Source: Escherichia coli (GTDB lineage: Bacteria > Pseudomonadota > Gammaproteobacteria > Enterobacterales > Enterobacteriaceae). From it: a DNA stretch of 64,000 bases. The stretch lies in NCBI RefSeq assembly GCF_003334385.1, contig NZ_QOWN01000003.1, one strand, 5' to 3'. The translations under genes and the position numbers were made by a program. Each line of letters starts with the position of its first letter. Positions within the stretch are counted from its first letter, which is position 1. The notes under the pieces were generated by a model that made no database searches, was not told the DNA's origin, and saw only the letters and a program-made list of their open reading frames with translations. Of the stretch, positions 18,785 to 24,941 are shown piece by piece.

Positions 18785-19825
18785 ATGAGCGACAACATCC
18801 GTGTTGGGTTGATTGGGTATGGTTATGCGAGCAAAACCTTCCATGCGCCCCTGATTGCGGGCACGCCCGGGCTGGAACTGGCGGTAATCTCCAGCAGTGA
18901 TGAAACAAAAGTAAAAGCCGACTGGCCAACGGTTACGGTTGTCTCTGAGCCGAAGCATCTGTTTAACGATCCCAACATAGACCTGATTGTCATTCCTACA
19001 CCCAACGATACCCATTTCCCGTTAGCCAAAGCGGCGCTTGAGGCGGGTAAACATGTGGTCGTTGATAAACCCTTTACCGTGACACTGTCACAAGCGCGAG
19101 AGCTGGATGCGCTGGCAAAAAGCCTGGGGCGTGTGCTGTCTGTATTCCATAACCGTCGCTGGGATAGCGATTTCTTGACGCTAAAAGGTTTACTCGCGGA
19201 AGGCGTGCTGGGTGAAGTTGCTTACTTTGAGTCTCATTTTGACCGCTTCCGTCCGCAGGTGCGCGATCGTTGGCGTGAACAGGGCGGCCCAGGCAGCGGT
19301 ATCTGGTACGATTTAGCACCACATCTTCTTGATCAGGCCATTACGCTTTTTGGTTTACCGGTCAGCATGACGGTAGATTTGGCACAGTTACGGCCCGGAG
19401 CGCAGTCGACCGATTATTTCCACGCCATCTTGTCCTATCCACAGCGGCGAGTCATTTTACACGGTACCATGCTGGCAGCCGCTGAGTCAGCACGGTATAT
19501 CGTGCATGGATCCCGAGGCAGTTATGTGAAATATGGCCTCGATCCACAGGAAGAACGTCTGAAAAATGGCGAGCGTCTACCGCAGGAAGACTGGGGCTAC
19601 GATATGCGTGATGGCGTACTTACCCGCGTGGAAGGTGAGGAACGTGTCGAAGAAACGCTGTTGACGGTGCCTGGGAATTATCCGGCTTACTATGCGGCTA
19701 TTCGTGATGCGTTAAATGGCGATGGTGAAAATCCGGTTCCGGCAAGCCAGGCAATCCAGGTAATGGAGTTGATTGAGCTGGGCATCGAATCCGCCAAACA
19801 TCGCGCGACTTTGTGCCTTGCATGA
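18785..19825 (+). CDS. ydgJ: Gfo/Idh/MocA-family oxidoreductase YdgJ
   Basis: ORF 18746..19825; start at MSDNIRVGLIGYGYASKTFHAPLIAG gives 346 aa as in K-12. Confidence 0.85.
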   Translation: MSDNIRVGLIGYGYASKTFHAPLIAGTPGLELAVISSSDETKVKADWPTVTVVSEPKHLFNDPNIDLIVIPTPNDTHFPLAKAALEAGKHVVVDKPFTVTLSQARELDALAKSLGRVLSVFHNRRWDSDFLTLKGLLAEGVLGEVAYFESHFDRFRPQVRDRWREQGGPGSGIWYDLAPHLLDQAITLFGLPVSMTVDLAQLRPGAQSTDYFHAILSYPQRRVILHGTMLAAAESARYIVHGSRGSYVKYGLDPQEERLKNGERLPQEDWGYDMRDGVLTRVEGEERVEETLLTVPGNYPAYYAAIRDALNGDGENPVPASQAIQVMELIELGIESAKHRATLCLA

Positions 19826-19858
19826 AAAATGGATGGTGCATTTGCACCATCCATTTTG

Positions 19859-20860: not shown

Positions 20861-20929
20861 GGTCGCACTCTTTTTCTGGATATAAAAGTGCGCACCATTA
20901 TAAAAACAAAGCAGGGTAAAAATCCACGA

Positions 20930-20957
20930 TTGCGCAACGATTTTTTACGTTGCGCAA
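20930..20957 (-). terminator. Perfect 10-bp inverted repeat (TTGCGCAACG-N8-CGTTGCGCAA) just past the malY stop; probable malXY terminator or operator
   Basis: Perfect palindromic arms read directly, 7 nt downstream of the malY stop on the minus strand; a U-run follows after a short gap. Confidence 0.45.
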
Positions 20958-20963
20958 TTGGGG

Positions 20964-22136
20964 TTAACGAACAGCGCGGATGGCGTTAATTAATCCAGCC
21001 ACACCTTTTTCCAGTTTCGAACGTGGGCAGCCGGCATTGAGACGGACAAAACCACGACCTTCTTCACCGTAGGTATACCCCGGCATGATCGCGACTTTTT
21101 CTTGTTCGATAAGTGCTTTTTGCAACGCGTTGTCGTCAATATTCAACGGACGTAAATCAAGCCATGCCAGATAAGTGGATTGTGGGATCTGCCAGTTGAG
21201 TTCAGGAAACGCGGCGTTCATTTTATCTGCGATATACGTCAGGTTATCTTTCAGATAGATGCGTAAGGCATCCAGCCACGGCGCGCCTTGCTGATAGGCG
21301 GCGATATGGGCAGTTAACGCCAGTACCGAAGGGGAAGAAAGCCCATCACGGCCTTTCAGTGCCGATAAATAGGCATCGCGGCTACTGCTATTTTCTATAA
21401 TCCCGTAAGCACCGGTCAGGGCGGGAATATTGAAACTTTTCGAGCCCGACGTTAGCAACGCCCAGTCTCCGCGAGCCACATTACTCCAGGGAATATGCGG
21501 CTGCTCGCCCCAAACCATATCCATATGGATTTCATCGGAAATAACCCGCACACCATGACGCTCGCACAGGTCAGCCATGATCTCCAGCTCATCGCACGTC
21601 CACACTTTCCCGGTAGGATTCTGTGGGCTACACAGGAGCATAATTTTACATTCTGGTTTCGCCAACACGGCTTCCAACTTGCCCATATCGCAAAACCAAC
21701 CATCAGCCTGCTTCTCTAAAGCAACGGGCATTACTGTGCGCTGGTTACCTTCAATGGCCTTGTAAAATGCGTCATAGGCGGGTGTGTGGATCACCACGCC
21801 TTCACCTGTTTCAGACCACTGACGAATCAGTTCTGAAACCATATAGATGACAGAAGGGCCATACACCACCGTCTGAGAATCGATGGCGGTGTAATGCTGG
21901 GTGGAAAACCAGTGGGCAATAGCCGCGAGAAACTCATCGTTTTTCCAGCGGCTGTAGCCAAATACGCCGTGCATCAGGCGCTGATTCAGCGCCTCGATAA
22001 TGCAGGGGGCAGTGGCAAAATCCATGTCTGAAATCGTGAACGGTAACAGGTCAGCAGTGCCGAAACGGTCAGCGACATAATCCCACTGTGTACACCATGT
22101 GCCATGACGATCCACGACCTTTGAAAAATCGAACAT
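20964..22136 (-). CDS. malY: PLP-dependent cystathionine beta-lyase / MalT-interacting modulator MalY
   Basis: 390 aa MFDFSKVVDRHGTWCTQWDYVADRFGTADLLPFTISDMDF...; matches MalY. Confidence 0.92.
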   Translation of the reverse strand: MFDFSKVVDRHGTWCTQWDYVADRFGTADLLPFTISDMDFATAPCIIEALNQRLMHGVFGYSRWKNDEFLAAIAHWFSTQHYTAIDSQTVVYGPSVIYMVSELIRQWSETGEGVVIHTPAYDAFYKAIEGNQRTVMPVALEKQADGWFCDMGKLEAVLAKPECKIMLLCSPQNPTGKVWTCDELEIMADLCERHGVRVISDEIHMDMVWGEQPHIPWSNVARGDWALLTSGSKSFNIPALTGAYGIIENSSSRDAYLSALKGRDGLSSPSVLALTAHIAAYQQGAPWLDALRIYLKDNLTYIADKMNAAFPELNWQIPQSTYLAWLDLRPLNIDDNALQKALIEQEKVAIMPGYTYGEEGRGFVRLNAGCPRSKLEKGVAGLINAIRAVR

Positions 22137-22145
22137 ATCTTATCC

Positions 22146-24941
<2,796 letters not shown>

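Follow-up and report, generated by a model that had tools for sequence, protein, structure and literature searches.

Between malY and add in Escherichia coli, two genes read in the same direction, lies a short spacer with a perfect inverted repeat. What is this palindrome for? It could end the malXY transcript, or it could be the binding site of a dimeric regulator in the add promoter, and the original prediction, made from one stretch of DNA of 64,000 nucleotides (the window), left the choice between the two. The palindrome most likely forms the hairpin at which malXY transcripts end, a short way before the add promoter, and something probably also reads the TTGCGCAA sequence within it, as a protein site. 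In this combined reading a malXY terminator or 3' hairpin is fused to the upstream part of the add promoter, and its core is under an extra, sequence-specific constraint; we give it a probability of about 0.5. Taken separately, the terminator part is likely, and recognition of the core by a protein falls a little short of an even chance.

Anatomy of the malY-add spacer

The window carries the E. coli malY-add locus, with malX, malY and add all on the minus strand, and sequence comparison showed its malY-add spacer to be the same as that of K-12 MG1655. The malY open reading frame occupies 22136-20964 (stop codon TAA, 20964..20966), and that of add, with start codon ATG, 20860-19859; the spacer between them is 103 bp long. 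The left arm TTGCGCAACG (20930-20939), the loop ATTTTTTA (20940-20947) and the right arm CGTTGCGCAA (20948-20957) are all present as predicted, a 10-bp inverted repeat with an 8-nt loop, and the perfect stem is in fact one pair longer. Read in the malY/add sense (minus strand), it is an 11-bp repeat at 20929..20958, ATTGCGCAACG-TAAAAAAT-CGTTGCGCAAT, with six G-C pairs among the 11. The repeat begins 6 nt after the malY stop and ends 69 nt before the add ATG, which agrees with its description as immediately past malY and some 70 bp upstream of add. An extended imperfect stem (CCCCAA...TCGTGG, 20924..20963, minus strand) has 16 pairs with 2 mismatches. A run of five T (20918..20922, minus strand) follows 1 nt past the extended stem and 6 nt past the perfect one, so that the whole element reads CCCCA-ATTGCGCAACG-TAAAAAAT-CGTTGCGCAAT-CGTGG-A-TTTTT-ACC in the malY/add sense.

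Each arm also holds the self-complementary 8-mer TTGCGCAA, a feature that the original prediction had missed. As both arms have it, the element is at once an inverted and a direct repeat. The distal box lies at 20950..20957, with its centre at -63.5 from the add start site, and the proximal box at 20930..20937, with its centre at -43.5 and 27 nt upstream of TATAAT.

The folding energy of the E. coli hairpin as RNA is -20.4 kcal/mol (z = -3.35 against shuffles). Perfect repeats able to form hairpins (stem 10 bp or longer, loop 3-10 nt) were counted in the window and in 40 dinucleotide shuffles: the window has 15 distinct repeats (30 script entries) and the shuffles a mean of 0.85 entries, a roughly 35-fold difference. 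Since such repeats far outnumber those in shuffled sequence, the palindrome is no chance match; it belongs to a common class of hairpins, mostly terminators. A stable hairpin lies directly downstream of the last gene, as is expected of an intrinsic terminator, and a consensus scan calls a terminator-like site there; the E. coli T-run, only five long and offset from the perfect stem, passes a simple scan. The 30-mer is found exactly in 5387 of 5426 complete E. coli genomes, one copy per genome, and has no RefSeq annotation under it.

The add promoter adjoins the hairpin. Its -10 hexamer is a perfect TATAAT (20897..20902, minus strand), conserved in 80 add loci, and its -35 region is poor (TGGATT/GGATTT); a consensus scan gave no full sigma-70 match. 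Locating the add transcription start had been proposed as a check on the palindrome. SMRT-Cappable-seq places that start at NC_000913.3 position 1702203 (PMC6131387, Supplementary Data 1, 2 and 4), which, mapped from K-12 through the identity of the spacer to MG1655, is window position 20890 on the minus strand, downstream of the palindrome. The hairpin therefore covers -39 to -68 of the add promoter and the T-run -32 to -28, about 25-30 bp from the add start. In the same data the add transcript is monocistronic and ends at 1703269, the malX-malY operon starts at 1699313, and a second start at 1700839 serves malY alone; b1621|b1622 and b1623 are separate operons, and add has a single transcriptional context in both media (PMC6131387). 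The Term-seq and long-read (SMRT-Cappable-seq) tables consulted list no malY 3' end.

Frozen boxes in a covarying stem

Eighty Enterobacteriaceae add loci were compared, about 50 of which have the element beside add. The unit conserved among them is not the 10-bp arm and its loop, on which the original prediction was built, but two exact copies of TTGCGCAA with 12 bp of variable sequence between them, 20 bp from centre to centre. The loop composition that had been stressed is not conserved across orthologous loci. The spacing differs in four loci, with 11 or 13 bp (13 in one Escherichia locus, 11 in the Citrobacter loci L052 and L074). Both boxes are unvarying in about 57 loci, and all 16 core positions are identical in 44 of 44 distinct sequences from more than 10 genera. 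Across genera (about 50 loci) the proximal box lies 24-27 nt upstream of TATAAT, so that its distance from the -10 hexamer varies by 3 bp; in Enterobacter the box centres are at -41.5 and at -61.5, counted with the published start site as reference. This is sequence conserved at a fixed promoter position, as would be found for an operator.

The bases around the boxes behave differently. In an ungapped alignment of the 44 distinct sequences, with 500 shuffles and slid partners as controls, all six flanking pairs show double, pair-preserving substitutions; the eight core pairs are constant throughout and therefore uninformative on covariation. The covariation score was 0.224 against 0.096 in shuffles (none of the 500 reached it) and at most 0.10 in the slid controls; a separate permutation test agrees for the pairs that flank the boxes. 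The pair that adjoins the boxes on the outside, for example, occurs as U-A (19 sequences), G-C (10) and A-U (7). Since the flanking pairs covary, pairing from arm to arm has been selected beyond the boxes, with compensatory changes of the kind expected in an intrinsic terminator. To judge from the alignment, this speaks for a nucleic acid that folds and not for a protein reading a long palindrome, and it makes the hairpin, at the 3' boundary of the malIXY module, a structure under selection. G.U and A.C mismatches number 18 and 17, without bias, and so give no sign that the sense RNA is the strand that folds.

Hairpins in 57 orthologous loci have a mean folding energy of -18.5 kcal/mol, and 55 of the 57 are followed, 0-6 nt after the stem, by a run of at least three T (the runs are of 3-6 T). 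The block ATAG(C/A)TTTTT is conserved in other genera, and the stem extension is better paired in other Escherichia lineages (-25.8 kcal/mol in L002).

The hairpin that follows add served as a control. In the window, a perfect 15-bp inverted repeat, AAAATGGATGGTGCA / TGCACCATCCATTTT (19826-19857), lies between the convergent genes add and ydgJ, and looks like a bidirectional terminator because A and T runs flank it. The published end of the add transcript, 1703269, is window position 19824, 2 nt beyond this repeat. Over the same 80 loci the hairpin after add gives way, from one genus to another, to REP elements or to unrelated hairpins. At such phylogenetic depth the sequence of a terminator is not normally preserved. 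As the downstream add terminator turns over while the TTGCGCAA cores are frozen, the cores are constrained beyond pairing. A hairpin needs no self-complementary arms, and an arbitrary one would have them by chance in about 1 case in 256.

Rearranged loci, other copies and candidate regulators

Several loci separate the element from one or the other of its neighbours. Citrobacter gillenii (L007) and the metagenomic locus L195 have a 66-codon open reading frame and a different add upstream module between malY and add, L052 has a GGDEF gene inserted there, and in L074 add is 2.4 kb from malY. In these three Citrobacter arrangements add is 0.5-2.4 kb away, and the malY stop is still followed directly by both boxes and the inner stem; the hairpins of L052 and L074 have no T-run behind them, and add itself has a box-free upstream module in L007, L052 and L074. 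The opposite case is seen in three Pseudescherichia-type genomes (L063, L064, L067), where malY is a remnant or is absent within the fetched stretch and both boxes are intact. There two of the three have a decayed inner stem, and the T-run is down to three. A proximal box without its partner, spaced as usual from the -10 hexamer, is found in Siccibacter (L062) and Pluralibacter gergoviae (L068), with a separate GC-rich terminator before it, and in Cedecea and Dryocola the distal box alone survives. One box has decayed where a canonical GC-rich terminator is present (L062, L066, L068, L069). Because the core is kept both where only malY adjoins it and where only add does, dual use is favoured.

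Several independent insertions have breakpoints at the hairpin edge or a few bases beyond it (L052, 868/869; L074, 81/82; L007, about 1990; L068, about 2400). The inserted material includes the GGDEF gene, the 66-codon open reading frame, with CPCPNC and CPQC motifs, and a 607-aa open reading frame. The palindrome may be a preferred junction or a fragile point for insertions.

The boxes do not occur wherever add does. They are absent from species without malY next to add and from add loci with the type B module (18 of these were scanned), those of Salmonella and Klebsiella included; Salmonella arizonae and diarizonae possess malY and no boxes. The box-free add loci share a different conserved upstream module that ends in CTGTTGTATAAT. 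Since species without an adjoining malY have this other module and no boxes, add does not need the boxes. The module linked to malY carries the TTGCGCAA pair and ATAGCTTTTT. The other, TTTTTCAAAGTT..TTAGAGG....CTGTTGTATAAT, is found in species without malY beside add. The two, as seen in the window (about 20903-20929) and in L006, L010, L018, L020, L049, L059, L065, L077 and L081, join about 10-20 bp upstream of the -10 hexamer. Within Silvania, Superficieibacter, Lelliottia, Phytobacter and Citrobacter, sister species differ in the module that they carry, and the two upstream regions for that reason behave as alternative haplotypes; the comparison suggests that whole haplotypes have been exchanged.

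Other copies of the palindrome had also been proposed as a line of evidence. The 30-mer occurs once per E. coli genome (5387 genomes), so the search gave no further copy of the whole. A scan of the window found three further single boxes, all inside open reading frames, no other pair, and near-matches at chance frequency. With one place per genome, the element is not a multi-copy dispersed repeat of the REP/BIME, ERIC or similar kind. The pair TTGCGCAA-N12-TTGCGCAA was sought in metagenomes as well, with at least 121 matches in at least 120 stretches. Among the matches listed, the 17 enterobacterial stretches are all malY-add loci, with no second enterobacterial site of the pair, and the non-enterobacterial ones are mostly 20-bp tandem repeats, coding sequence, or arrays of boxes by unrelated regulators. 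A search of Rfam 15 gave only chance-level matches (E >=0.58, far below gathering scores).

Intergenic arrays of three or more TTGCGCAA were seen in unrelated metagenomic contigs from outside the enterobacteria, in L179 (2843-2870 and 9799-9826) and also in L103, L171 and L189. One of the L179 arrays adjoins a divergent XylR/AraC-type regulator gene, and in other phyla the 8-mer may serve a regulator as its box. A single exact TTGCGCAA also lies in the K-12 gltX-valU spacer (L211, 813-820), upstream of the valU tRNA operon, quite possibly by chance.

Adenine induces E. coli add 17.6-fold, and ChIP-chip found no PurR binding at add (PMC3159470); deletion of punR changes only punC (PMC8376909). 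As PurR and PunR leave the roughly 17-fold adenine induction unaccounted for (PMC3159470, PMC8376909), any conserved cis-element of the add promoter is a candidate handle. The palindrome, being haplotype-specific and linked to malY, is a poor candidate for a general purine response. A better candidate for conserved purine control of add is a second inverted repeat, GCGCACTTT-N13-AGAGTGCG (window 20864-20893, minus strand), which reaches across the add start site (20890) and the ribosome-binding region. All 80 of the add loci have it, with either upstream module, and one of its pairs covaries: C-G, U.G and U-A (four sequences) all occur there, and C opposite A does not. The repeat could act as an operator, or as a 5' stem-loop that covers the Shine-Dalgarno sequence.

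A number of known regulators were compared with the boxes. The PunR motif, TsttwTCAAwAwwwTTGaaGGCA, is unlike them. The MalI operator GATAAAACGTTTTATC, which occurs twice in the malX-malI spacer and is conserved, is unrelated, and the upstream regions of xapA and xapR have no boxes for XapR. A near-copy of the arm, ATCGTTGCGTAAT, lies by the malX CRP site of E. coli and is not conserved in Citrobacter, Trabulsiella and Enterobacter-like loci. In the malX-malI spacer a CRP-like site lies between the two MalI operator copies, GATAAAACGTTTTATC and GATAAAACGTTTTACC (window about 23791-23806 and 23868-23883); all three elements are conserved in the same Citrobacter, Trabulsiella and Enterobacter-like loci. 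The arrangement resembles the malX-malI control region of the literature.

RbsR is a candidate in E. coli because it is reported, in the accounts given of Shimada 2013 by PMC8376909 and PMC5601083, to bind at the promoters of add, udk and purHD and to be an activator of all three. As the reader of the boxes it is a weak candidate, and in E. coli only. The verified rbs operator is TCAGCGAAACGTTTCGCTGA; the malY-add spacer has no match to the canonical operator GCGAAACGTTTCGC within 3 mismatches of 14, and no contiguous 14-18 bp palindrome with a central CG of the RbsR/LacI-family type. The E. coli arm GCGCAACG agrees with an RbsR half-site at 7 of 8 positions, the central CG among them. The two arms that look like half-sites stand apart, with an 8-bp spacer between them, and the resemblance is confined to Escherichia; the CG adjoining the box, which completes the half-site, is not conserved outside that genus. 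Exact TTGCGCAA copies are also found upstream of K-12 purH (L204, about 2151-2160), where the sequence reads TTGCGCAACG and overlaps the PurR operator, and in the K-12 udk-dgcE spacer (L203, 2145-2152). At the base rate of the window the expected counts at the two are about 0.05 and 0.025, with a joint chance of about 1e-3. The udk box is missing in Salmonella, Kluyvera, C. koseri and Cedecea, and was set aside as a conserved site.

Alternative explanations and known systems

In the combined reading, RNA polymerase coming from malX or malY would transcribe both arms, a stem of 11-16 bp would form, and malXY transcripts would stop at or close to the T-run, some 25-30 bp short of the add start site. 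Where the genes stand in their common order, this DNA would double as the stretch from -30 to -70 of the add promoter, whose -10 is perfect and whose -35 is poor. The TTGCGCAA core would be under a second constraint, on sequence and not on pairing, most likely caused by a dimeric or tetrameric protein that reads each 8-bp palindrome. Judged by the pattern of conservation, a dual-use element fits better than either single function. What the analysis shows directly is the anatomy of the element, its place relative to a mapped start site, the covarying flanks, the invariant core and the fate of the element in rearranged loci; from these we infer termination at the hairpin, the binding of a protein and, where one is named, its identity. 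Each of the two options of the original prediction keeps part of its ground. The terminator option, the better supported of the two, has the T-run, the flanking covariation, the separate published units and the staying of the hairpin at the malY end on its side, short of proof; the dimeric regulator has the invariant cores, the fixed 20-bp spacing and the positions -43.5 and -63.5 beside a poor -35, and neither a fitting motif among those tested nor a second copy in the sequence searched.

An ordinary intrinsic terminator and nothing more seems unlikely. Its frozen core would be a self-complementary stem that is hard to change, or the product of template-switch correction of quasi-palindromes. 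The consensus scan, the fold, the separate published units, the orthologous hairpins and the covariation all suit it, the element co-occurs with malY or a malY remnant in every locus, and one box decays beside a canonical GC-rich terminator (L062, L066, L068, L069). However, terminators at the same phylogenetic depth, as after add, turn over completely, and self-complementary arms would arise in only about 1 hairpin in 256. Template-switch correction predicts arms that covary, as the flanking pairs do, not arms that are frozen, and in Pseudescherichia the boxes are perfect while the inner stem and T-run decay. Boxes kept after malY was lost (L063, L064, L067) and boxes kept singly (L062, L068) are what one would expect if the element were purely a DNA operator of the add promoter, with RbsR or another regulator on the two TTGCGCAA copies, activating or repressing add. 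The hairpin potential would then be a by-product of two identical palindromes, with no malXY termination. The invariant cores and their fixed spacing, the poor -35 beside a perfect -10, the Enterobacter positions of -41.5 and -61.5, RbsR binding to the add promoter as reported at second hand, and the TTGCGCAA copies upstream of purH and udk in K-12 fit as well. This explanation is also doubtful, because the bases outside the boxes covary for arm-to-arm pairing and not for symmetry within each box, a pattern that a protein site would not require. Moreover, L007, L052 and L074 keep both boxes whole beside malY, at a distance from add, neither the window nor the metagenome matches listed gave the further, regulon-like site expected of an operator, and the canonical RbsR, PunR and MalI motifs do not fit.

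The persistence of the element after malY where neither a T-run nor the add promoter is beside it (L052, L074) is equally suited to a 3' feature of the malXY RNA. The self-complementary arms would give a two-fold symmetric stem, a duplex UUGCGCAA/UUGCGCAA with both pairing and sequence conserved, read by a dimeric protein that binds or cleaves RNA; examples would be RNase III-type processing or a 3'-end stabiliser that sets malXY mRNA stability. G.U mismatches are not in excess over A.C, however, no Rfam family matches, single boxes that are unable to form the stem persist (L062, L068), and boxes persist where malY is gone (within L063-L067), so that such a role is improbable. A more specific form of the combined reading can also be proposed, in which one protein at the TTGCGCAA palindromes both blocks malXY read-through and sets the activity of the add promoter, a terminator-operator inherited as the boundary of malIXY. 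The protein would be either RbsR in a non-canonical split-site mode or another one. This is speculative; if true, it could account for part of the purine/ribose control of add in E. coli. The malY-add element changes no general picture, and a frozen core in an otherwise normally evolving terminator is a small, clean test case for a hairpin that doubles as a protein site.

Among known systems, the closest are the intrinsic terminators and compact terminator-promoter junctions of E. coli. As in these, a stable hairpin lies a few bases past the stop codon and is followed by a T-run, the flanking stem pairs covary, and the upstream and downstream genes are reported as separate units. Unlike these, the malY-add stem core shows no drift across genera, whereas the add-ydgJ terminator has been replaced many times; its arms are individually palindromic, and its T-run is five long and offset from the perfect stem. 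The operators of the LacI/GalR family (RbsR, PurR) are similar in that the E. coli arm resembles an RbsR half-site, RbsR is reported, in secondary accounts, on add, and the purH PurR box overlaps an exact TTGCGCAACG. They differ in that a canonical RbsR operator shares one central CG, and the CG dinucleotides at malY-add are an 8-bp spacer apart; for PurR, ChIP was negative at add (PMC3159470). Only 8 bp are conserved at malY-add, too few for this family.

Tandem short palindromes are also the operators of dimer-of-dimer repressors, for example the 8-bp met boxes of MetJ and the half-sites of NikR, about two turns apart. The malY-add boxes are like these in being two 8-bp dyads that, 20 bp from each other, share roughly one face of the helix and have a spacer of unconstrained sequence between them; we know of no protein of the MetJ or NikR type linked to the locus. 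Their sequence is unrelated, and the malY-add spacer and flanks have been selected to pair, which MetJ and NikR operators do not need. The element is most likely an unannotated terminator of the Rho-independent type set against the next promoter, an arrangement already known, and its deeply frozen, doubly symmetric core is what makes it unusual.
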